From assembly GCA_037478635.1 (NCBI GenBank), contig JBBFMI010000001.1, forward strand, positions 1 through 56,777: a DNA stretch of 56,777 nucleotides, in the 5' to 3' direction. Both the position numbers and the translations under genes were made by a program. Positions 3,688 through 56,777 of this stretch are shown one piece after another (position 1 is the stretch's first letter; each line of letters opens with the position of its first letter). Source of the DNA: Candidatus Geothermincolales bacterium (GTDB lineage Bacteria; Actinomycetota; Geothermincolia; Geothermincolales; RBG-13-55-18). A model generated the notes under the pieces. That model saw nothing but the letters and a program-made list of their open reading frames with translations, was not told the origin of the DNA and did no database searches.

Positions 3688-4608
3688 GTGGCACCGGAAG
3701 CGGAGGGAACAGGAGGGGCGCCAGGGAGTCCCGGGTTCGAAGAGCCGGATAGCGTATGGAAGAGATTGGGACGGCGCTTTTCTGACCTTCTCGTTAGGGT
3801 CGTGAGCGCCGTGATCCTCGTCCTGATCGTCCTCCTGCTTCTCTGGTGGGGAGAACTCCCTTTCACCCTCGGCATCGCCATCATCTCCGTGTTCGGCATC
3901 AACGAGATATTCCGAGCCTTTTACGCGAGAGGTTTTAGGCCGGTGGCGATACCGTCGTTGGTGGCCGGAGGATCGTTGCCGATCGTTGCCTATTATTTCC
4001 AAGATAGGGATGATGGTTTCGCCTGGATTACCTTGGTCTTCGCGGTCTACCTTCCCATCCTTTTCCTGTGGGGTCTTTTGCGCAAGGACCACCGCCAGGT
4101 GGCCGAGGATCTGGGTCTATCCATGTTGGGCGTCACGATGGTGGGTTTCTGCCTCTCCCATTTCGTCCTCATGCTGGGACTGGACGCAGAGAAGTCCTGG
4201 AGTGCGCCCTTTTGCGTTATAGCCCTGGTTTGGGTTTTCGACGCGGTGGCCTATCTTACGGGGACAGCCTTCGGAAAGAGGAAGATAGTTCCATCGATAA
4301 GTCCTGGCAAGACCTGGGAAGGCACCCTCTGCGCGACTCTCGTAACCTTTGTAGCCGCCTATCTCTTATACGCATTTTTGGATAGGGACTGGCTGGGACT
4401 GGGAACTGCCATGGCCCTGGCCGCCATTACCTGCGTTTTGGCTTTCCTGGGGGACCTTTCGGAATCGCTGCTCAAGCGCGAGCTTGGCATAAAGGACATG
4501 GGGTCCCTCATCCCGGGTCACGGCGGGGTGATGGACAGGTTCGACAGCATGCTGATGACGGCGGCGGTTTCCTACTATTTCCTCCGCTTCCTGGTGTTCA
4601 AGATCTGA
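3688..4608 (+). CDS. cdsA: Phosphatidate cytidylyltransferase (CDP-diacylglycerol synthase)
   Basis: Multi-TM protein with C-terminal signature SESLLKRELGIKDMGSLIPGHGGVMDRFDS; GTG start 3 nt after the frr stop. Confidence 0.9.
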   Translation: MAPEAEGTGGAPGSPGFEEPDSVWKRLGRRFSDLLVRVVSAVILVLIVLLLLWWGELPFTLGIAIISVFGINEIFRAFYARGFRPVAIPSLVAGGSLPIVAYYFQDRDDGFAWITLVFAVYLPILFLWGLLRKDHRQVAEDLGLSMLGVTMVGFCLSHFVLMLGLDAEKSWSAPFCVIALVWVFDAVAYLTGTAFGKRKIVPSISPGKTWEGTLCATLVTFVAAYLLYAFLDRDWLGLGTAMALAAITCVLAFLGDLSESLLKRELGIKDMGSLIPGHGGVMDRFDSMLMTAAVSYYFLRFLVFKI

Positions 4609-4929
4609 CGGGCAACGCGCTTTTCCGACCACCGCCCTTAAACGATGTTCCCCGGCGGATCTTACCATGACCCGCAAAGGCCCACGTCGCCACGCTGAAG
4701 GCCGGCACGCCTCCTTTTCTCGCGGGGCCGGAAGAAATGCACGGGGGTTAACTCCTTCTGAAGATGCGCAGGTTGTCAGGAGCTTTGACCGGATAGGTGG
4801 TTGCAAAGCAATGAGCGTTTGGCTTGGACGGGACGTATGGACGCACCCCGAGATTCGATCAGGTGCCCGCAGCGTGCCTTGAACCTATATTTCGAGGTTG
4901 TCGGCTCTCCGCGACTTTATAATGTTTCT

Positions 4930-6129
4930 ATGACCGGGGACGTGGATCTGAAAGGAAGGATCTCCAGAGGAAGGATCGGGCTGGTTATCCTGGGCTCCAC
5001 CGGTTCCATCGGCAGGCAAGCCCTCGAGGTGGTCCGACTCCACCAAGACCGATTGCGGGTGGTGGCCTTGGTGGCCCGCGCCAACGTGGGACTGCTGGTG
5101 GAGCAGGCGCGGGAGTTCCGCCCCCTCATGGTGGGCCTGTTGGAGGAGGGCCCCGCGACGGAACTGAAAAGGGAACTGGACGGAACGGGCATCGAGGTAA
5201 GGGCGGGGCCCGATTGCCTGGTTGAGGCGGCAGCACACCCACTGGCCGATACAGTGCTCAACGCGGTGGTGAGCTCGGCCGGTCTGCCCGCCACCCTGGC
5301 CGCGCTGGGGGCGGGAAAGAGGTTGGCCTTGGCCAACAAGGAGAGCCTGGTAGCAGGAGGTGAACTGGTTCTCAAGGCTTTAGACTGCGGCGGGGAGCTC
5401 ATCCCGGTGGACTCGGAACACAGCGCCGTGTTCCATTGTCTCACCGGAGAGGACCCCGGTTCGGTGAAAAGGTTGATCCTGACCGCGTCGGGCGGGCCAT
5501 TCCGAGGACGGAGGAGGGAGGAGCTGGAGAGGGTTACCCCGGAAGAGGCGCTCCGGCATCCTACCTGGAAGATGGGGTCGAGGATCACCGTCGACTCAGC
5601 CACCCTGATGAACAAGGGACTGGAGGTGATCGAGGCCCATTACCTCTTCGGGATCCCCTACGAGCACATCGACGTGGTGGTACATCCCCAGAGCATCGTC
5701 CATTCCATGGTGGAGTTTCGGGATGGTAGTTTCGCCGCTCAGCTGAGCGTGCCCGACATGAGGATTCCCATAGCCCTGGCCCTGTCCTATCCCGAGAGGT
5801 GGGAAACCCCGGCACGACGCACCACCTTGGACGACCTGAGGGAACTCACCTTTGAGGAGGTGGACCGCGAGACCTTCCGATGCCTCGAGCTGGCTTACCG
5901 GGCGGGGATGATTGGAGGAACCGCCACCGCGGTTCTCAATGCCGCCGACGAGGTGGCGGTGGAGATGTTTTTGCGAGGAGAGATCGGGTTTTTGGATATT
6001 GAAAGGATGGTGGGAGCGGTCCTCGACGACCATCAGCCCGGAAAGGTGGAAACCTTGGATGACGTGATGGCGGCCGAGGAATGGGCGAGGGCAAAGGCCA
6101 TGGAATGGTGGGAGGAGACCCGTAGATGA
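4930..6129 (+). CDS. dxr: 1-deoxy-D-xylulose-5-phosphate reductoisomerase
   Basis: LGSTGSIGRQALEV NADPH motif, LANKESLV, DSEHSA. ATG at 4930 gives a normal-length DXR; the ORF-track start at 4801 adds a non-homologous extension. Confidence 0.93.
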   Translation: MTGDVDLKGRISRGRIGLVILGSTGSIGRQALEVVRLHQDRLRVVALVARANVGLLVEQAREFRPLMVGLLEEGPATELKRELDGTGIEVRAGPDCLVEAAAHPLADTVLNAVVSSAGLPATLAALGAGKRLALANKESLVAGGELVLKALDCGGELIPVDSEHSAVFHCLTGEDPGSVKRLILTASGGPFRGRRREELERVTPEEALRHPTWKMGSRITVDSATLMNKGLEVIEAHYLFGIPYEHIDVVVHPQSIVHSMVEFRDGSFAAQLSVPDMRIPIALALSYPERWETPARRTTLDDLRELTFEEVDRETFRCLELAYRAGMIGGTATAVLNAADEVAVEMFLRGEIGFLDIERMVGAVLDDHQPGKVETLDDVMAAEEWARAKAMEWWEETRR

Positions 6130-7232
6130 GCTTCATCTTGTACCTGCTGGCGGTGCTCGCCTCGGTTGTGGTGCTGGTGATGGTGCACGAGCTGGGCCAT
6201 TACCTTGCAGCTCGTGCGGTGGGGGTCAAGGCTACCGAGTTCTTCGTGGGATTCGGGCCTCGGATCTGGAGTTTCCGCCGGGGAGATACGGAATACGGTT
6301 TGAAGTGGATACTGGTGGGAGGATACGTGAAGATCCTGGGGATGAATCCCGACGAGGAGGTGAGCCCCGAGGACTGGCCTCGGTCTTACCGGGGAGTTCC
6401 CCACTGGAAGAGGTTGTGCATCATCCTCGCCGGCTCTTTGTTCCACGTGATCTTGGCCCTCGTGCTTTCTTTTTCCGCCATCTATTTCGTGGGGGTGCCC
6501 AATCCCGACCGTCCCACCACCGTCATCGCCGAGGTGGGGAGGTATATGGAGGACGGGGTCGAGGAGACCCCCGCCTGGAAGGCCGGGTTGAAGGAGGGCG
6601 ACCGGATCCTGGCCATTGACGGCGAAGAGGTCGCGGATTGGTGGGGGGTGCGGGAGTACATCCGGCAGAATCCCGGCAAGGAGATCACCCTGACGGTGAA
6701 AAGGGGAAAGGAGACCCTCGACATAACGGTGGTCCTGGCGACCAGGGAAGACGGTGGAGGGTACCTCGGCGTGAGCCCCCTGGAGGACAGGGACCGATAC
6801 GGGATAGGTGGCGCGCTGGTCCAGACCGGCAAGTGGTTCCTGCAGGCATCTTATGGCGTTTTTTACGGGATATACCGGATGTTTAGCTGGAGCACCTTCA
6901 AGCAACTGCTGGGGATATCGGAACCCACGCCGGAAAGACCGGTGACCGTGGTGGGGGCTTCACGGCTGGCGGGAAAGGTCGCGAGTTACGGCGCCTTTTA
7001 TTTCCTCAACTTCCTGTCGTTCATCCTCCTTTTCCTGGCCTACGTGAACCTGCTTCCCCTCCCGCCCCTGGACGGCGGCCACCTCCTGGTCGTGCTGGTG
7101 GAGAAGGTGACTGGCCGTGATGTGGACCTCAGGAAGCTCTACCCGGTGGCGGTGGTGGTGATCGCGTTTTTCGTGACCATGTTCGTCCTGACTTTGAGGT
7201 TGGACATCCTGAACCCCATCCAGCTCCCGTGA
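6126..7232 (+). CDS. rseP: Site-2 (M50) zinc metalloprotease RseP/Rip1-like with PDZ domain
   Basis: HELGHYLAAR (HExxH), PDZ-like GLKEGDRILAIDGEEV, NLLPLPPLDGGHL; ATGA overlap with the dxr stop. Confidence 0.9.
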   Translation: MSFILYLLAVLASVVVLVMVHELGHYLAARAVGVKATEFFVGFGPRIWSFRRGDTEYGLKWILVGGYVKILGMNPDEEVSPEDWPRSYRGVPHWKRLCIILAGSLFHVILALVLSFSAIYFVGVPNPDRPTTVIAEVGRYMEDGVEETPAWKAGLKEGDRILAIDGEEVADWWGVREYIRQNPGKEITLTVKRGKETLDITVVLATREDGGGYLGVSPLEDRDRYGIGGALVQTGKWFLQASYGVFYGIYRMFSWSTFKQLLGISEPTPERPVTVVGASRLAGKVASYGAFYFLNFLSFILLFLAYVNLLPLPPLDGGHLLVVLVEKVTGRDVDLRKLYPVAVVVIAFFVTMFVLTLRLDILNPIQLP

Positions 7233-49297: not shown

Positions 49298-50297
49298 CCG
49301 GTTCCCGACCCCGAAGTGGAAGGTAATCACCATCGTCGCCTCCATACTGCTGGCCTCTGTCCTGGTCGCCCACCTCGTGAATCACTTTTTCTTCCCCGGC
49401 AAGAACGGCGAGAAAGTCCACGTGGTCATCGAGAAGGGAGAGGGATTGGGTGCCGTCGCTGAAAAGCTGCGCGAGGAGGGGATCATCAGGAGTTCGCTCC
49501 TGCTCCGTCTCTACGCGATGGTGAGAAGAGGCGATACGCTGGTTCTCCCTGGTCATTATCTGTTCGAAAGGGGGATGAGGTACGGGGAGGTCTTGGACCT
49601 GTTGGCGCAGGGCCCAAACTACCAGGTGAGAGTGACCGTTCCCGAGGGGCTCACCCTCCACCAGACAGCCGAGATATACTCTTCGGTCCTCGGTTTCACG
49701 GTCGAGGATTTCTTGGCGGAATGCAACTCGCGATTGCATCCCACCCCTTTCATCGGCGACAGGGATGTCACCTTGGAGGGGTTTCTCTTCCCCAAGACAT
49801 ACGATCTGCCACCGGACGCCACTCCGGGGACAGTGGTGGAGACGATGCTCAGGCAGTTCGAGAAGGAAGCCGCAGAACTGGATTGGGGCAAGGCGGAAAA
49901 ACGCGGTCTTACGCCATACGAGGTGGTAATCGTGGCCTCCATGATAGAGAAGGAGGCCATGCTCGACGATGAAAGGCCATTGGTGGCCGCGGTCATCTAT
50001 AATCGCCTCAGGTTGGGCATGCCCCTCCAGATAGACGCCACGGTGCAGTATGCCCTTCCCCGATGGAAACCTCGCCTAAGCTACCAGGATCTCCAGGTGG
50101 ATTCGCCGTATAACACCTATCGACATAAAGGGCTTCCTCCCGGTCCGATATGCAGCCCGGGCAGGAGCAGTCTCGAAGCAGCACTCGATCCCGCTTCGGT
50201 GGATTACCTTTATTATGTCGCCACCGGGGACGGCGGCCATTTCTTCACCTCCGACTACGGAGAGTTCCTCGAGGCGAAGAAGAGATATCAGCCTTGA
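49245..50297 (+). CDS. mltG: Endolytic murein transglycosylase MltG (YceG-like)
   Basis: N-terminal TM, LysM-like region, catalytic VASMIEKEA, SPYNTYRHKGLPPGPICSPG. The listed start overlaps ruvX by 53 nt, so the true start may be further downstream. Confidence 0.88.
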   Translation: MWKSHEKDRKERTLTIFDRFPTPKWKVITIVASILLASVLVAHLVNHFFFPGKNGEKVHVVIEKGEGLGAVAEKLREEGIIRSSLLLRLYAMVRRGDTLVLPGHYLFERGMRYGEVLDLLAQGPNYQVRVTVPEGLTLHQTAEIYSSVLGFTVEDFLAECNSRLHPTPFIGDRDVTLEGFLFPKTYDLPPDATPGTVVETMLRQFEKEAAELDWGKAEKRGLTPYEVVIVASMIEKEAMLDDERPLVAAVIYNRLRLGMPLQIDATVQYALPRWKPRLSYQDLQVDSPYNTYRHKGLPPGPICSPGRSSLEAALDPASVDYLYYVATGDGGHFFTSDYGEFLEAKKRYQP

Positions 50298-50444
50298 TCG
50301 AGAAAAACGGCCGGCCATAGTCGTTTTGCCTTTGGCCTTGTCAAAAGGATTTTTAAACATGACGGACTTTAATTTCCATCCGATGGAGTCGATGTTGAAG
50401 GAGTAAGGTGATCGCCCGTCAAAGTCACTAAGAGCCGGGCAGAT

Positions 50445-50450
50445 TAGAAT
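50445..50450 (+). promoter_or_regulatory. Candidate -10 element (ATTAGAAT context) ahead of the V4R/hydrogenase-like operon
   Basis: TAGAAT at 50445-50450 in the AT-richer 192-nt gap after mltG. The octamer ATTAGAAT is the same as at the putative pimA promoter. No good -35. Confidence 0.3.
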
Positions 50451-50489
50451 CGAAGAGTCCACTGGCAATGAACCCAGGAGAAAGAAGAC

Positions 50490-50978
50490 ATGGTCGGTAG
50501 CATGAACGGCGCATCAGGCAGGGGGATGTGGCTTGCGGAGACGCTGGCCGTCTTTGGGCTATCCGCTGAGATGGCGATAGGCCCGTCGACGCCCAGGGTC
50601 ATCTACTTCTCGGCCAAAGACCTAGGGGTTAGAGAGGGCAAGAGGTTCGATCACACGGATGACCTCGAACAGGCGCTACGCTGGATCCTGAGAACTGATG
50701 AAGGTCACTGGTCTGTCGTTTTCTGGAAGGATGTGGACGAGGAGGATTTCTGGGAGACGGATGGGAAATTCGCCTTCATCCGCCTGTTGATGAGAGATTG
50801 TCTCGTCAGGGACGCATGCTTGGCGACGGGTATCAGGGTTGGCGGGACCGTCTGCGAAGCCCTTCATGGCTACTGGGCAGGGCTTCTGGAGAGCATTTTC
50901 TCCCGGAGGGTGGACATCTTGACCGAGCACGCCGGTTTTGGGAGCTGCCTTTTGTGCTTGAGGACCACCTCCGGTTGA
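50490..50978 (+). CDS. Hypothetical protein with C-terminal V4R-like (4-vinyl reductase type) small-molecule-binding domain
   Basis: C-terminal VCEALHGYWAGLLESIFSRRVDILTEHAGFGSCLLCL resembles the V4R pattern C-x2-L-x-G-x2-AG ... V-x-V-x-E ... C-x-F. AGGAGAAAG RBS. Pattern resemblance only. Confidence 0.45.
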   Translation: MVGSMNGASGRGMWLAETLAVFGLSAEMAIGPSTPRVIYFSAKDLGVREGKRFDHTDDLEQALRWILRTDEGHWSVVFWKDVDEEDFWETDGKFAFIRLLMRDCLVRDACLATGIRVGGTVCEALHGYWAGLLESIFSRRVDILTEHAGFGSCLLCLRTTSG

Positions 50979-51005
50979 GTCGCCAAGAGGAAAAGGTGAA
51001 GAGTT

Positions 51006-51902
51006 ATGGATAGGTTGGCAATTATACAGCTCGGCTCCTGTGGAGGCTGCCAGCTCTCGCTACTGGATCTCGGGAAAGACTTCCTCGACATCATGGAAAT
51101 GTATTCCATTGAGCATTTTCCGATGATAAGGGAGGGAGAGGAATTCCCGGAGTCTGACCTCGTACTGGTGGAGGGCACGGTGAGACATGCCCGACACTTA
51201 GAGTCACTGAGAAAGGTTAGGGGCAGGGCGAGGACCCTAGTTGCCCTGGGGACATGCGCCGTGTTCGGGGGGGTCCAGGGCCTGGCGAACGTGAGCGGTG
51301 GTGGTAGGTGGGAGGAATCCATTTCCAGGGCTCGTGCGGGCGAGAGCGTCCCGCTATTCACCAGGAGGGTCCTACCACTCGACGCCTATGTGCCGGTGGA
51401 CGTGAGGTTACCCGGTTGTCCGGTGCCCGCCGGGCTTTTGGCATCCTTCCTCAAGGGATCGGCGGAAGGGGCGAGGCCTACCAGGGAATCTGCCACCGTG
51501 TGCGCGGAGTGCCCACTTAGAGGAGGTGGTGAGAAAGGAGGCCCGTTCCGCTTCACCGAGAGGAAAGCCGAATCGGGGATATGTTTTCTGGAGCAGGGTT
51601 TTCTCTGTATGGGGCCACTTACCCGGGACGGTTGCGGCGCCCTTTGCCCCGGATCTTCGGGATACCCCTGTCGGGGATGTCGCGGGCCTTCTGATGGGGC
51701 CTTGATCTTTCAGGAATTGGATCCCATGGTCGAGTCCATCAGGAGGCTTTCCCGCACTGCGAGCAATAAGGATGAACAGGTGGCGGGTTATTTCATGGAC
51801 AGGGCTCACGCGTTTTTCATGTTCTGCGCGGCAGAACCGACATTCCGAGACAGGAGGGTCGGGGGGACTTCTGGGATCGTGTACAGGTTGGGAGGTGAAT
51901 GA
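51006..51902 (+). CDS. [NiFe]-hydrogenase small subunit homologue, group-3 (MvhG/FrhG/HydD)-like, three predicted Fe-S clusters
   Basis: Proximal-cluster motifs GSCGGCQLS, GTCAVFGG, PGCPVP. Distal/medial region VCAECP ... ICFLEQGFLCMGPLTRDGCGALCPGSSGYPCRGCRGP. Confidence 0.8.
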   Translation: MDRLAIIQLGSCGGCQLSLLDLGKDFLDIMEMYSIEHFPMIREGEEFPESDLVLVEGTVRHARHLESLRKVRGRARTLVALGTCAVFGGVQGLANVSGGGRWEESISRARAGESVPLFTRRVLPLDAYVPVDVRLPGCPVPAGLLASFLKGSAEGARPTRESATVCAECPLRGGGEKGGPFRFTERKAESGICFLEQGFLCMGPLTRDGCGALCPGSSGYPCRGCRGPSDGALIFQELDPMVESIRRLSRTASNKDEQVAGYFMDRAHAFFMFCAAEPTFRDRRVGGTSGIVYRLGGE

Positions 51903-51963
51903 GCCCCTCGTTACACCGTGGCCGTGGTAGGCCACTGGGAGGCAGAAGAGGCGGTTGAGAGAT

Positions 51964-53271
51964 ATGGCTACATATGGTCTGGCCAGGGTTTTTGGTGAGG
52001 CCCACCTGAGGGTCGAGGTCGAGGAGGGAGGAAAACCCTCGGTTGGCTTGGCCTGCGAAGGTTACAGGGGTTACGGGATCATCGGCGCAGGATGCCACGG
52101 GGAATTCCTCCCCGACCTCTTATCCAGGCGCTGCGGGGTCGATTCCCTGTATCACAGGATGGCAGCCTGCCTGGCCATGGAAAAGGCCCTGGGAGTGGAA
52201 GTACCGGAAAGCGCCGGGAGGGTTAGGGAGTTGTTATTGGCCTGCCAGCTGTTCCGTCGGCATTCGCTGACCATGACCCTGCACGTACTTCCAGATCTCC
52301 TGTTCCCGGCCTCCGACCCAGGGGTTAGAAACCTGGTGGGACTCTTCCGGGTGGACAGGGACGTGGTGGGGAGGATGATGGCCCTTAACTCTTGGGGGGA
52401 GAGCGTCTTGAGGAATATCTCTGCCCGGGCCGTCCATCCGCTGACCCCGGTGCCGGGCGGACTCACCTTTATTCCGGGTGAGGAGGCCATCGATTGGTTG
52501 AGGAAATCGATCCCCGAGATGATGGGCCTTGCCAGGGAGACCTCGCGCTTGGTCAGGATGTTGTTAAGGCGTAATGAGGACCTGGTGGGAGAACTGGGGA
52601 TACAAGATGGTTCGCAGATGGTGGCGGAAACACCGCCGTTCGGAGGTTCGTGGGTTGGCGTGAATATAGCGGAGTTCACCGGCGAGAGGCGAAAGATCGG
52701 GGCCCTGGATTTGCTGGAGAGGGCTGAAAAGGTCAGCCTGTCCGACACCCTACTGGAGGGTTACCGCGTCTCCGGAGACGGTTACGGGATCCTTACCGGG
52801 CCCCTTTCCAGGATAAACGTGATGGGTTCTTACGGCACCGAGATGGCTGACTCGGAGCTGGAGGAGATCAAGAAGATATGGGGTTTCCCTTTCCGGGGAA
52901 TACTTCTATCCCATGCACTCCGCCTGGCAGAGATGATCATGGCTCTGGAGAAGATAACCGGGCTGATTTCCGAGGCCGATTCCTGGGGGAGGGGGGAGTC
53001 GAGGAACGAAGTCCCCAGGGGAAGTGGCGAAGGGGTCGTAGCCCTTGAGGGAGCGGAAGGCTTGCACCTTCTGAAGGTAAAAGTGGAAGAAGGCTACGTT
53101 TCCGGTACCGAATATGTCGCGCCGTTACAATGGAACCTCGTTGGTATGCTGGATATGCTGGAACGGGAAGGGCAGAAGGTGGGAGAAGACACGGGTGAGG
53201 CTCGATGGCTGAGCAGGTTAGAAGTGGCGGTGAGGGCCTATGCCCCCTGTTTCTTCTGCGCGGCTGGCTGA
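51964..53271 (+). CDS. [NiFe]-hydrogenase large-subunit homologue with degenerate active-site motifs (pseudo-hydrogenase or sensor candidate)
   Basis: Collinear with large-subunit motifs, but RIEGH is RVFGE, RxCGxCxxxH is RRCGVDSLYH, EAPRGxLxH is EVPRGSGEG, PTxWN is APLQWN, and DPCxxCxxH is APCFFCAAG followed by the stop. ATG 51964 (the ORF track lists TTG 51955). Confidence 0.72.
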   Translation: MATYGLARVFGEAHLRVEVEEGGKPSVGLACEGYRGYGIIGAGCHGEFLPDLLSRRCGVDSLYHRMAACLAMEKALGVEVPESAGRVRELLLACQLFRRHSLTMTLHVLPDLLFPASDPGVRNLVGLFRVDRDVVGRMMALNSWGESVLRNISARAVHPLTPVPGGLTFIPGEEAIDWLRKSIPEMMGLARETSRLVRMLLRRNEDLVGELGIQDGSQMVAETPPFGGSWVGVNIAEFTGERRKIGALDLLERAEKVSLSDTLLEGYRVSGDGYGILTGPLSRINVMGSYGTEMADSELEEIKKIWGFPFRGILLSHALRLAEMIMALEKITGLISEADSWGRGESRNEVPRGSGEGVVALEGAEGLHLLKVKVEEGYVSGTEYVAPLQWNLVGMLDMLEREGQKVGEDTGEARWLSRLEVAVRAYAPCFFCAAG

Positions 53272-53297
53272 AATGACGTGGAGGAGGCCTGGCAGTG

Positions 53298-53570
53298 ATG
53301 TCTGAAGCAAGGGTGGAGCTGGATCTTGCAAGATGCGTGGCTTGCCTGGAATGCTTGGAGGTCTGCCCGCGATCTTCCGGCATTGACCACCCCGTGTTCG
53401 ATAGGTCCGAGGAAGGTCTGCCCAAGGTAGCGTATCCGGGCAGTTGCATTTCCTGTCACGATTGTGCCGTGAGATGCAGGGCGATGGCCATACGGATCAA
53501 CGGGAAGTGTTTTCCCCCACCCCGAATGGTCGATCCGGTTCTTTCGAGCAGGATTCAGACCATATACTGA
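53298..53570 (+). CDS. 2x[4Fe-4S] ferredoxin-domain protein
   Basis: CVACLECLEVCP and CISCHDCAVRC (CxxCxxCxxxC twice); GGAGGAGG RBS. ATG 53298 (the ORF track lists GTG 53295). Confidence 0.85.
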   Translation: MSEARVELDLARCVACLECLEVCPRSSGIDHPVFDRSEEGLPKVAYPGSCISCHDCAVRCRAMAIRINGKCFPPPRMVDPVLSSRIQTIY

Positions 53571-53773
53571 TGACCGACGGTTTGAGCATGGATGTGAGTG
53601 ATGTCACCGGGAAGAGTCTACAGCCTCAAAACCTGGTAGCCAGGCTAAACAATTGGGCGGCTTTGACGATACAGTAATAAGCGTTGACCGTGTTATACAC
53701 GAGTAAACTTATGGTAAAAATGGCGTTTGACGAGATCGAGTAAGCATCGGGAATGGGCGGGAGGTGGTAGGTT

Positions 53774-54127
53774 TTGCCGGATCTGAGGAGAGTCCTGGAG
53801 GAACTTGTGGCCACCGGGGCGGTTAAGGCCTGCCTGGTGGTGGGCAGGGATGGTTTCATCATAGAGGCAGTGGGAAGCGATCCCTCCCAACTGGAAGCGG
53901 TGGGCGCTATCGCACCCAGTTCCCTGGGTGCGGCGGAGGTCATCGGACTCGAACTGGCCCAAGGTCCTATGAGCCAGGCCTTGTTCGAGTTCGAGAAGGG
54001 TGCCATCATGATGAGCGCAGTGGGTCCCGATGCCATCCTGGTGAGCATCCTTCCCTCGGGCGCTAACCTCGGGAAGGCCAGGTACGATATCCGGAAGTTC
54101 CTGCCTGCTATCGAGAAAGCCCTGTGA
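53774..54127 (+). CDS. Roadblock/LC7 (MglB-like) domain protein, paralogue 1
   Basis: About 117 aa; AVKACLVVGRDGFIIEAVGSD ... ALFEFEKGAIMMSAVGPDAILVSIL, a typical Robl/LC7 pattern. TTG start after GGAGGTGG. Confidence 0.8.
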   Translation: MPDLRRVLEELVATGAVKACLVVGRDGFIIEAVGSDPSQLEAVGAIAPSSLGAAEVIGLELAQGPMSQALFEFEKGAIMMSAVGPDAILVSILPSGANLGKARYDIRKFLPAIEKAL

Positions 54128-54164
54128 ACGTTGATCTTGTCGATGGTCCAGAGGTGGTGAAAGG

Positions 54165-54539
54165 GTGGCAACCGAGAGGCTGGAAAGGATCAACACGGTC
54201 CTTCGAGAGTTAAGGGCAAACCTTCCCGAGGTGGAAGCGGTGGTGTTGATAAGCAGCGATGCCATGGCCCTGGCTTCGGACATCTCTGACGATTCCGATG
54301 AGGAGATGATAAGTGCCCTGTCGAGTTCCGTGCTGAACATGGGGGAGAGGGCCGCCAGGGACCTCAGGCGAGGGGTGTTGGAGCAGGTGTTCATCAAGGG
54401 TGACCAGGGATCCCTTCTCCTCATGCATTGCGGTCCCCAAGCCCTGCTGTCGTTGATGGTCAAGCCAGAGGCCAAGCTGGGCGTGGTGCTCATGGAGGCT
54501 AAGAGAACGGTAGAGGAACTCTCCAGGCTCTTTGATTAG
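54165..54539 (+). CDS. Roadblock/LC7 (MglB-like) domain protein, paralogue 2
   Basis: LRELRANLPEVEAVVLISSDAMALAS ... QVFIKGDQGSLLLMHCGPQALLSLMV; GTG start after GAGGTGGTG. Confidence 0.8.
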   Translation: MATERLERINTVLRELRANLPEVEAVVLISSDAMALASDISDDSDEEMISALSSSVLNMGERAARDLRRGVLEQVFIKGDQGSLLLMHCGPQALLSLMVKPEAKLGVVLMEAKRTVEELSRLFD

Positions 54540-54590
54540 CCCCGACTCGGTATCCCATGGGATCTGGGAGGAAAAAAGGAGGTAAGATCC

Positions 54591-54989
54591 TTGTCGGAGT
54601 CGCGGGAAGAAAGGCTCAGGAAAGCCCTGCAGGAGCTTATATCGAAGTCAGCCGAGGTCGATGCAGCCGCTGTCGTCAGCATGGACGGATTGGTGATGGC
54701 CTCGGTCCTACCCAACACATTGGAGGAGGATAGGTTAGGGGCCATGTCCGCGGCTTTGCTCAGTCTGGGCGAGAGGACCTCCGAGGAGCTGGGTAGAGGA
54801 GAGCTGGCCCAGGTGTTCGTAGAGGGAAAGGAGGGTTACGTGTTCCTCATGGCCGCAGGACCCGATGCAGTCCTGACGGCCCTGGTCAGAAAGGGCAGCA
54901 AACTGGGATTGGTGTTATACGATGTCAAAGGGGCTGCAAAAAAGATAGCGGAGATAATCGCCTCGGAATTCAAGATTGAGTACGAATAA
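54591..54989 (+). CDS. Roadblock/LC7 (MglB-like) domain protein, paralogue 3
   Basis: LQELISKSAEVDAAAVVSMDGLVMAS ... QVFVEGKEGYVFLMAAGPDAVLTALV; TTG start after AAGGAGGT. Confidence 0.8.
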   Translation: MSESREERLRKALQELISKSAEVDAAAVVSMDGLVMASVLPNTLEEDRLGAMSAALLSLGERTSEELGRGELAQVFVEGKEGYVFLMAAGPDAVLTALVRKGSKLGLVLYDVKGAAKKIAEIIASEFKIEYE

Positions 54990-55093
54990 AACGACATATT
55001 TTATATGAGAATAAATTAGAGGGGTGGATCGACCATCGTCCGGAAGTTCCGCCGTCCTCTTTGGTTTAAAATAATAACAAGAGATGATGAGAG

Positions 55094-56777
55094 ATGGCTC
55101 TTAAGGGCAGTTTGAAGGACTTCAGCCTCCCCGATCTATTCCAGTTGCTGAACTTCAGCAAGAAAAACGGCACGCTTAACCTCGTGAGGGGGAATTCCAG
55201 GGGATATATCTGTTTCCGCAACGGGGAGGTCTTTTTCGCCACCACCAACTGGAAACGGCAATCCCTGGGCATGAAGCTCATGGCCGCGGGACTCATCACC
55301 AAGGAACAACTGGAAGAAGCGCTCGGGTTGCAGCGTACGGAGGCAAAGGGGCAGAGGCTGGGGCAGATCCTGGTGCGTCTGGGATACATAACCCAGGAGC
55401 AACTCGAGGTCTTCGTGGAGGAGCAGATACAGGATGCCGTTTTTGAGATGCTACGCTGGACCGATGGGGAATTCGATTTCCAGCCTGGGGTGGTGTTCCC
55501 GGAGGAGGATATTGGCCTCTCCATCAGCACCGAGGAGCTGATAATGGAAGGCTCCCGGCGTCTGGACGAGTGGAACCGCATCGAGAAGAAGATACCCCAC
55601 CTTGACGTGGTCTTCAGGATGAAGTCAATGCAGGGCAGGGAGGCTGCACAGATTAGCCTGACTCCAGAGGAATGGATGGTGCTCACCTACGTGGATGGCG
55701 AGAGGACGGTCCGCCAGATAGTGGAACTCACGGGGATGAGCACCCTCCAGACCTGCAAGATCCTCTACGGCCTGATCAGCTCCGGTTTGCTTGAAAACGT
55801 TACCCCTCAACCGGAGGAAATAGAAACGGAGAAGAGGTTGGAGGAGCTCGCCCAGGAGCTTGAGCGAGCGGAGCAGGAAGTGACCACCGAGGTTAAGGAA
55901 ACGGAGGTCACGGGAGAGAAGAGAGTCTATCCGGTTGAGGAAGAGATGGGCTTGACCGAGAGGGTGGAAAGCCTGCTCCGGGAGCTGGAAAGGCCGAAGG
56001 AGGAGCTCAGGGAGATCGGGGATACCGAGACCGGTCAGCATGAGGAGACCGTAAAAGAAGCGGAAGACCTTTTGAGGCAACTCGAGGAAGAACGAGAACG
56101 GGAGGTTTATCAGCAGCAGGTCACGGAAGGGTTTGCCGGGGAGATCTCAGAGGAAGAAACCCGATCTTCAACGAGAGCTGAGACGACGTTATCGGGGGAG
56201 ATCTCCCAAGAAGAAGAAGTGGTGGTGGGAGCGGAAGAAACCGAAGAGATCCTGGTGGTGGAAGAGGAGGAGGCCGGGGTCTCCGTGGAGGATGCTTCTG
56301 CCGGGGCGGGAGAGCTGGTCGAGGAGCCGGGGATATCAACCCTTGCCGGTAAGGCCGAGGAAGAACCTTCCGCGGGCATGGCGGTTGAGAGCGATAGACC
56401 AAAAGACCTCCTGAGAGAGAGCCTGGAAGAGGAGAGACGAAGGCTGGAGGAGCTGAAACGACAGACCCTAGCCGATGCACTGGAGGCATCTACAGAGATA
56501 GAGGTGGTAAAAGGCGGCGGAAGGTTGAATGTCCCCGAAGGGCTGATAGATGCTGACGAGACCGTGGAACTCAAACCGTCCCGTCACATCGGTACAGGCG
56601 AGAGAAAGCCCGTACAGGAAGGGGACTTGTTGCACGAAAGCGAGCAAGCCAGAAAGGCGAAGATGTCTTATCTGGCGAAGAAATACGGCATTGATTTTGA
56701 TGAATTGGAGCAAAGGAGAGAGGAAGAACCGAAAGATGCCATAGATACACCTCTTGAAGCAAAGGAGAAAGAGGGAG
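55094..56777 (+). CDS. PATAN/DUF4388-domain protein with helical MshEN/T2SSE_N-like insert and long acidic coiled-coil tail; 3' end outside the window
   Basis: Not in the supplied ORF track because it has no stop. I translated it codon by codon from ATG 55094 (two in-frame TGA codons just upstream) to nt 56777 and found no stop (more than 561 aa). N-terminus [30 protein letters not shown] is the DUF4388/PATAN signature. It continues ...[11 protein letters not shown] and a wHTH-like [30 protein letters not shown]. Confidence 0.8.

Follow-up and report, generated by a model that had tools for sequence, protein, structure and literature searches.

The stretch of DNA analysed here (the window) comprises positions 1 to 56,777 of contig JBBFMI010000001.1 from a Candidatus Geothermincolales bacterium (assembly GCA_037478635.1), and towards its end lies a unit of four genes in the order V4R-fold protein, small subunit, large-subunit homologue and ferredoxin (Table 1). 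The third gene, a homologue of the large subunits of [NiFe] hydrogenases, is the subject of this report. The C-terminal end of its open reading frame (ORF; 51955-53271, plus strand) is RAYAPCFFCAAG, followed by a TGA stop codon at 53269-53271, and positions 53242-53271 read GCC CCC TGT TTC TTC TGC GCG GCT GGC TGA (A-P-C-F-F-C-A-A-G-stop). The alternative start, an ATG at 51964 three codons inside the TTG, is the start in the close relative P0001 (435 amino acids, aa).

An original prediction, made from the letters alone, held that this protein ends exactly where mature hydrogenases are cleaved by their endopeptidase, that both cysteines of the C-terminal motif are kept with the Asp and His/Arg lost and no extension present, and that a sensor-like role with endopeptidase-independent maturation follows. 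The description of the terminus was borne out by direct reading of the motif and by a phmmer alignment to chain F of PDB entry 5odc (5odc_F), in which query residue 437 stands opposite chain residue 447 of the 473-residue MvhA precursor, so that G438 takes the position of the His that ends mature MvhA; Foldseek counts 447 modelled residues in this chain. The canonical motifs of group 3c and MvhA are ICGxCxxxH (L1) and AYDPCxxCATH (L2) (PMC6085437). In the window protein the L2 context is AYAPCFFCAAG with a tail length of 0, in which both Cys are kept, the Asp of DPC has become Ala and the His/Arg has become Gly.

Table 1. Features of the four-gene unit and its neighbours, and motif states of the orthologue families (from proton-gate motif to terminal residue)
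Feature	Position	Strand	Remarks
V4R-fold protein, first gene of the unit	50490-50978	+	162 aa; identified by AlphaFold2 and Foldseek
Small subunit, VhuG/ShyD-like	51006-51902	+	Three [4Fe-4S] clusters predicted
Large-subunit homologue	51955-53271	+	438 aa from TTG 51955, or 435 aa from ATG 51964
RVFGEA where RxEGH is expected	51985-52002	+	Proton-gate Glu lost
L1 motif RRCGVDSLYH, residues 58-67	52126-52155	+	Second, bridging Cys is Asp
EGAEG where EAPRG is expected	53047-53061	+	Canopy Arg replaced by Glu
C-terminal motif APCFFCAAG and TGA stop, residues 430-438	53242-53271	+	Degenerate L2 motif, no extension
2x[4Fe-4S] ferredoxin	53295-53570	+	Starts 23 nt after the large-subunit stop
Three Roadblock/LC7 genes	53774-54127, 54165-54539, 54591-54989	+	Neighbours of the unit
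PATAN (PatA_N) protein	55094-56776	+	Runs off the window
f4 orthologues (class level)			RIQGRA; four Cys; Arg sometimes kept (ESPRG); [I/S/L/N]PC; terminal H
f2 orthologues (Geothermincola type)			Glu lost; four Cys; ESPEG; APC/SPC; terminal H
f1 orthologues (including the window)			Glu lost; second Cys is Asp; EAPEG; mostly APC; terminal H, R or Q
Subclade of the window			RVFGEA; second Cys is Asp; EGAEG; APC; terminal G

Orthologue termini

Orthologues were read from 20 species-level genomes, class-level relatives and metagenome contigs, together about 30 loci or genomes. No extension is present in any complete orthologue of this set, the stop codons being TGA, TAA and TAG, and every complete orthologue except that at locus L043 ends at the shared column CxxCxx[H/R/Q/G]; the orthologue at L013 is incomplete and runs off its contig end. 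The thirteen nearest database proteins all terminate at that column as well. A 97%-identical gene in an independent Logan assembly (L033) has the same GCGGCTGGCTGA end with a synonymous change in the Pro codon, and the 23 nt between the stop and the ferredoxin gene contain the GGAGGAGG ribosome-binding site of that gene and no remnant of an extension. Measured against a 97%-identical relative, the ratio of nonsynonymous to synonymous substitution rates (dN/dS) is 0.13 for the large subunit and 0.05 for the small subunit.

It might be supposed that the stop is an artefact of sequencing or assembly, an outcome that the original prediction had itself named as its refutation, or that a nonsense mutation has recently arisen in a decaying pseudogene. 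There is next to no chance of this, given an identical end in the independent assembly and the shared end in about 30 species with three different stop codons, dN/dS values of 0.12-0.24 and a ferredoxin ribosome-binding site directly after the stop. Recoding of the TGA, as selenocysteine or by read-through, was considered and rejected, as TAA and TAG stand at the same column in orthologues and read-through would add only NDVEEAWQ ahead of another stop. A frameshift masking an extension was likewise set aside, as the other frames stop within a few codons and the ribosome-binding site and start of the ferredoxin gene follow after 23 nt. With assembly error, recoding and recent nonsense mutation excluded by the orthologue termini, the three stop codons, L033 and the downstream ribosome-binding site, the stop at 53269-53271 is, by these comparisons, the native and conserved end of a hydrogenase-derived protein.

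The class-level orthologue at L043 (G250:C3) ends ...RALNSCMV-stop, four residues short, with the last Cys lost and RSCASC kept as its N-terminal motif; this is a further step of active-site decay at the same locus.

Active-site residues and their history

The proton-gate Glu of RxEGH and the canopy Arg of PRG have catalytic roles known from studies of E. coli Hyd-1 and of Desulfovibrio enzymes. Neither residue is found in the window protein, which has also lost the second Cys (now Asp), the canopy Asp and the terminal His; compared with the four-Cys ligand pattern of RxCGxCxxxH and DPCxxCxxH, three of the four Cys remain and the Asp and His are gone. An AlphaFold2 (AF2) model of the protein has a predicted local distance difference test (pLDDT) score of 89.5 and a predicted template modelling (pTM) score of 0.92, its last ten-residue block scoring 88, and Foldseek superposes it on MvhA chain 5odc_F with a template modelling (TM) score of 0.92 and a root-mean-square deviation of 2.2 Å. 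Pfam PF00374 (NiFeSe_Hases) matches at 32 bits (cut-off 25.8). Among NCBIfam profiles VhuA scores highest, with 133.7 bits where its equivalog cut-off is 800, and the protein falls far under every equivalog cut-off; its database relatives are annotated at source as 'F420-non-reducing hydrogenase large subunit'. Model and alignments together indicate a group-3c-derived protein in which the fold is retained and the catalytic residues are degenerate.

A tree of 150 group-3-like sequences, whose tails were removed before building, gathers the orthologues in one clade (24 rows, support 99), all tail-less; the closest outside branches, the Asgard VhuA-like P0023-25, bear tails of 22-25 aa. Because the clade is uniformly tail-less and its nearest sisters are extension-bearing, the extension was lost on the stem of the lineage, which by this tree branched from extension-bearing group-3c (Mvh/Vhu-like) enzymes. 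As reconstructed on the tree, the proton-gate Glu and the Asp of DPC were lost at the base of the lineage along with the extension, the canopy Arg and the second Cys (to Asp) were lost later, and the terminal His was lost in the window's subclade.

The substitutions are staggered from family to family. The second Cys position of L1 is Asp in all family-level (f1) orthologues and Cys in f2, f4 and f6, and the D to A change in the L2 motif is common to family (f1) and order (f2) orthologues, with I, S, L or N in more distant class members. The H to G change is confined to the small subclade of the window (the window and P0001-P0004), other orthologues ending in H (most), R or Q. On this distribution the loss of the DPC Asp is an old trait and the loss of the terminal His a recent one. 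Across about 30 orthologues C60, C432 and P431 are invariant and C435 is nearly so; D63 is fixed throughout f1, where E365 and E368 are also conserved.

Hydrogenase maturation genes

The window genome contains a single HycI-family endopeptidase gene. It belongs to a group-1 hydrogenase operon on contig C82, with hypF adjoining, and 15 residues follow the DPCLACAIH motif of the large subunit encoded there; hypC and hypD are on contig C63. An endopeptidase gene is therefore present where the original prediction had looked for its absence, but it belongs to a separate operon with an extension-bearing large subunit. Across the class, endopeptidase gene number follows the number of extension-bearing large subunits in a genome (0, 1 or 2) and not the large-subunit homologue: genome G263 carries two of each, every such large subunit having an endopeptidase gene next to it on its contig, and one of these pairs is a canonical 3c gene with a tail of 24 aa and its HycI. 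Of 22 class genomes, 16 have HypD, HypF (above cut-off), HycI and the group-1 large subunit, always together.

Six genomes (G118, G146, G237, G159, G046 and G132), 95-99% complete and in the case of G132 in only 10 contigs, are without HypD, HypF, HycI or another hydrogenase and have kept the orthologue. HypD is missing from 8 of the 20 species genomes with the orthologue and overall from about 10 of about 30 carriers, the absences being phylogenetically clumped (6 of 8 members of one subclade). Orthologues in Hyp-less genomes keep their motifs, and dN/dS is 0.16-0.18 between Hyp-less genomes and 0.12-0.24 between Hyp-bearing ones. Since the orthologue is kept under purifying selection in Hyp-less genomes, its function would be independent of the endopeptidase and of Hyp alike; and since carriers lack HypD, six of them also HypF, HycI and any other hydrogenase, an NiFe(CN)2CO cofactor as in regulatory hydrogenases is unlikely. 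By comparative genomics, then, the large-subunit homologue is Hyp-independent and not merely endopeptidase-independent. The claim of endopeptidase-independent maturation was correct in that nothing is left to cut, but it understated the case.

Conserved unit and neighbourhood

All carriers are Actinomycetota metagenome-assembled genomes (MAGs), of Candidatus Solincola, Candidatus Geothermincola and their relatives, a hot-spring lineage, and in every one the unit is flanked by alaS-ruvX-mltG on one side and by two or three Roadblock/LC7 genes on the other. In the window the first Roadblock/LC7 gene is 203 bp downstream of the ferredoxin gene, and in relatives the genes after PATAN are those for a small Ras-like GTPase, then aroE and a gene for a PilB-like ATPase. 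Strong matches were confined to the window's class in a 301-genome sample of the phylum, and a profile search of 1.84 billion representative proteins gave a handful of such clusters before scores fell from 482 to 323 bits; the four-gene unit is vertically inherited throughout one class of Actinomycetota. No mvhD or hdr gene lies next to the unit and no membrane-subunit gene within it, and no histidine kinase or response regulator stands beside the large-subunit homologue, its neighbours being V4R, ferredoxin, Roadblock and PATAN genes. A promoter and terminator scan of 50200-55200 gave matches at or below shuffle expectation and is uninformative on operon boundaries.

The iron-sulphur (Fe-S) ligands of the unit are strictly conserved, with all 12 small-subunit Cys (three [4Fe-4S] clusters) present in 26 of 26 orthologues and all 8 ferredoxin Cys in 25 of 25. 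The first gene has no Pfam match in the window, and 15 of its 25 orthologues give weak V4R matches; its AF2 model (pLDDT 89) is matched by Foldseek to the V4R sensory domains of PoxR, DmpR and MopR at TM scores of about 0.6. C104, C122, C153 and H126 are invariant and H147 nearly so among the 25 orthologues, a set that we take to resemble the zinc site of phenol-sensor V4R domains, and a metal site in this protein is likely.

Rates of change along the region were compared between window positions 50490-56776 and loci L003 and L014-L032. For family- and order-level genomes, identity is 81-96% in Roadblock 1, in Roadblock 3 and at the N-terminus of PATAN, and 58-91% in Roadblock 2; the corresponding values are 52-81% for AlaS, only 33-66% for the large subunit and 32-57% for the ferredoxin. 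G263 represents a family of the same order in which the locus has neither the four-gene unit nor the Roadblock genes and keeps PATAN, GTPase and aroE; about 1.2 kb without a convincing ORF lies there between mltG and the PATAN gene (L056, G263:C156, 306-1527).

Extension loss and the sensor question

Reviews list groups 2b, 2d, 4c, 4e and 4g as naturally extension-less, with group 3 absent from the list (PMC7294309, PMC12134894). The statement that extensions are missing from regulatory and some group-4 enzymes accordingly agrees with the literature but is too narrow, since 19 of 125 group-3 representatives that retain PRG and DPC have their last residue at the CxxCxxH position itself. At least 15 changes of tail state are counted on the tree, and the tail-less canonical proteins scanned are 3b-like and 3c-like. 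Those with full RxEGH, CxxC, PRG and DPCxxCxxH motifs include P0014-16, P0018, P0066, P0067, P0075, P0112, P0130, P0134, P0135, P0137, P0146, P0151, P0164 and P0167.

HoxC of C. necator pHG1, the sensor to which the original prediction pointed, ends DPCMVCTVH-stop, retains RVEGDL, RVCGICSVSQ and EAARG, and is followed directly by the kinase gene hoxJ. HoxC and the window protein share only the missing tail: the proposed alignment with HoxC and MvhA confirms an end at the cleavage point, as in HoxC, but the motifs of the sensor have been lost. Among the marks of a regulatory (group 2b) hydrogenase, the window protein has the absent extension and has neither intact motifs, nor a group-2 placement, nor an adjacent HoxJ/HupT kinase; tree, profile and fold make it group-3c-like. 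Because extension loss is frequent in canonical group 3 and the motifs of HoxC are intact, the missing extension is no pointer to a sensor, and a sensor-like role cannot be drawn from it. The absent extension would probably mean that there is no NiFe maturation at all, rather than maturation of the sensor type.

Comparison with known systems

The nearest known system is MvhA/VhuA-MvhG (group 3c, 5ODC), which ranks first in fold and profile comparisons and is the sister group on the tree. Group 3c also shares the gene order of small subunit, large subunit and ferredoxin or polyferredoxin, a small subunit with three [4Fe-4S] clusters and the motif context RAY-xPCxxC. MvhA differs in its protease-removed extension of about 25 aa, four Cys, RxEGH, PRG and DPCxxCATH, and in its partners MvhD and HdrABC, whereas the window unit begins with a V4R gene in place of MvhD and is Hyp-independent, by comparative evidence only. 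HoxBC/HupUV (group 2b) resemble the window protein in a native end at the CxxCxxH position with no extension and no need of an endopeptidase. They are unlike it in that HoxC has complete ligand and catalytic motifs, belongs to group 2 and signals through the adjacently encoded HoxJ kinase; HoxC needs Hyp and carries NiFe(CN)2CO (PMC7294309).

A different parallel is found in NuoD/Nqo4 of complex I, MbxL/MbsL, Ehr and the scaffold proteins HoxV/HupK, all of which keep the fold of a large subunit although their NiFe ligands have degenerated, have a NuoB-like or small-subunit Fe-S protein as partner and function without Hyp. The window protein shares the degenerate-ligand fold and the Hyp independence of such modules and has neither their group-4 ancestry (group 1 for HoxV) nor membrane subunits; it is soluble and group-3c-derived and keeps 3-4 Cys and all three small-subunit clusters, unlike proteins that work in membrane complexes or maturation pathways. 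The extension-less group-3 proteins from metagenomes (3c-like P0014-16 and P0066; 3b-like P0018, P0112, P0130, P0134 and P0137) end in the same way at CxxCxx[HQ], at about 416-437 aa, but they keep RxEGH, four Cys, PRG and DPC and so are catalytically competent in appearance.

Alternative interpretations

Could the unit nevertheless be an H2-sensing hydrogenase of the regulatory type, into which Hyp inserts NiFe(CN)2CO without proteolysis, as in HoxC/HupV, and which passes an H2 signal to a partner? The absence of an extension in HoxC and, by review, in groups 2b and 2d (PMC7294309, PMC12134894), the HypC, HypD and HypF of the window genome, the V4R sensory fold of the first gene and the Roadblock/PATAN/GTPase genes downstream would all suit such a protein. 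We regard it as unlikely, however, as HoxC retains RVEGDL, both CxxC pairs, EAARG and DPCMVCTVH where the window protein has lost Glu, Cys, Arg, Asp and His; the protein is group-3c-like on all three counts, extension loss is frequent among catalytic-looking group-3 enzymes, no kinase or response regulator is encoded alongside, and dN/dS is unchanged in the roughly one-third of carriers without HypD, six of them also without HypF and HycI.

The same Hyp-less genomes tell against a working but unusual hydrogenase, protease-free and with an Asp-ligated NiFe site, that has a part in energy metabolism, such as partnering heterodisulfide reductase in the manner of Mvh. Its Fe-S chain and ferredoxin are intact, Candidatus Solincola genomes have been described with 'hydrogenases, heterodisulfide reductase, Rnf' (PMC12917137), and the annotation of the relatives agrees. 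The proton-gate Glu and the canopy Arg and Asp are gone, though, all [NiFe] large subunits use four Cys according to reviews (PMC12134894), no mvhD or hdr gene is adjacent and scores lie far under every equivalog cut-off, making this alternative very unlikely. A somewhat better case can be made for a mere scaffold that supports the Fe-S small subunit as NuoD supports NuoB, with a metal-free pocket and structural or vestigial Cys: the small subunit is the more constrained of the two (dN/dS 0.05 versus 0.13), the pocket is not constant among families (63 is C or D, 368 is R, E or G, and the terminal residue varies), and the protein at L043 has lost its last Cys. It is still rather unlikely, because the conservation of C60, C432 and C435 and, in f1, of D63, E365 and E368 suggests a liganded site, P431 being invariant as well.

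Proposed function

There is reason to think that the protein belongs to a re-purposed, group-3c-derived Fe-S redox module, neither a true hydrogen enzyme nor an H2 sensor, and we hold this to be fairly probable. The reading starts from the terminus and its conservation, the fold, the loss of catalytic residues, the conserved Fe-S ligands and the Hyp independence observed by comparative genomics. In canonical enzymes the extension holds the apo-protein open until nickel has been placed, a state sensed by the protease (PMC12134894). Without delivery of NiFe(CN)2CO a protein would have no nickel-insertion checkpoint, and both extension and protease would be of no use to it. The heterodimer may still pass electrons from ferredoxin through three [4Fe-4S] clusters to a remodelled pocket, in which Cys60, Asp63, Cys432 and Cys435, with Glu365 and Glu368 nearby, might hold a simpler metal site or bind a ligand; candidate occupants are a simple Fe, Ni or Zn site, a cluster or a ligand. 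Such a unit could work as a redox enzyme or as a redox sensor, possibly reporting through the V4R protein.

Several points weigh against a Hyp-free redox module. All genomes are MAGs in which hyp, endopeptidase and group-1 genes are clustered, so that a single unbinned contig removes all of them and the four absences per genome are not independent; to this it can be answered that the absences are clumped on the phylogeny and are seen in near-complete assemblies. The window genome has HypC, HypD and HypF, and Hyp-dependent loading may occur there. Finally, three or four NiFe-site Cys are kept almost everywhere, which makes some metal centre likely.

A signalling role for the redox module is possible, the V4R fold of the first gene and the Roadblock/PATAN/GTPase neighbours hinting at it faintly. 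However, the synteny seen in all carriers takes in alaS-ruvX-mltG and aroE, and because it includes such housekeeping genes adjacency is no independent evidence of coupling. Moreover, hydrogenase-like genes do not accompany the PATAN/GTPase module in other Actinomycetota classes or in G263, a gap of 200-580 bp separates the ferredoxin gene from the first Roadblock gene, and the Roadblock/PATAN and hydrogenase-like genes evolve at very different rates. Adjacency was accordingly dropped as a proof of coupling, weakened as it is by the regional synteny, the gap, the module's occurrence elsewhere and the rate differences.

A more specific proposal, speculative and on balance doubtful, is that the protein is a soluble, group-3c-derived pseudo-hydrogenase that has traded NiFe(CN)2CO for a Hyp-independent metal site (which may be Cys3-Asp in the window's family and Cys4 or Cys3 in sister families), acting as a ferredoxin-linked redox or small-molecule sensor that, with its V4R partner, would feed the Roadblock/PATAN/MglA-like GTPase module. 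This module adjoins type IV pilus genes, and the arrangement, if true, would be a new bacterial coupling of cellular redox state to a small-GTPase switch of polarity or motility.

Implications

The tail-less large-subunit homologue is a real and ancient trait of a small, little-noticed family. No equivalent was found described in the literature for a Geothermincolia hydrogenase, for the combination of Roadblock, V4R and hydrogenase, or for Hyp-independent hydrogenase-like proteins. The annotations 'F420-non-reducing' and 'nickel-dependent hydrogenase large subunit' cover these genes, and if the proteins are Hyp-independent and catalytically depleted, reconstructions of cytoplasmic H2 metabolism made on this basis would be wrong, an error that weighs most for species without another hydrogenase. 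Known Hyp-independent descendants of hydrogenases are membrane-bound and of group 4 (complex I, Mbx/Mbs); the present proteins, if the proposal is true, would be a soluble group-3 case. The locus also offers a series from four Cys and Arg, through four Cys and Glu, to Cys3-Asp and then loss of the terminal His, which is suited to the study of how an NiFe pocket is re-purposed, and the frequent natural loss of the extension in group 3 bears on the debated role of the extension in maturation.

Further observations

Weak N-terminal matches to PF00374 were seen in frames of about 370-400 aa at G211:C13:18516-18719, G185:C2:14944-15144 and G132:C5:576699-576899. Two of the three have hyp or group-1 clusters nearby and may encode scaffold proteins of the HoxV/HupK kind; the third is in G132, a genome without hyp genes. 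On contig C82 of the window genome (L002, 3289-6285) a 166-aa membrane protein and two ORFs lie between the group-1 large subunit and the endopeptidase, and by eye these ORFs look RnfC-like (3790-5124) and RnfD/NqrB-like (5131-6285). If so, an Rnf-like set would be an unusual choice of electron-transfer partners for a group-1 enzyme.

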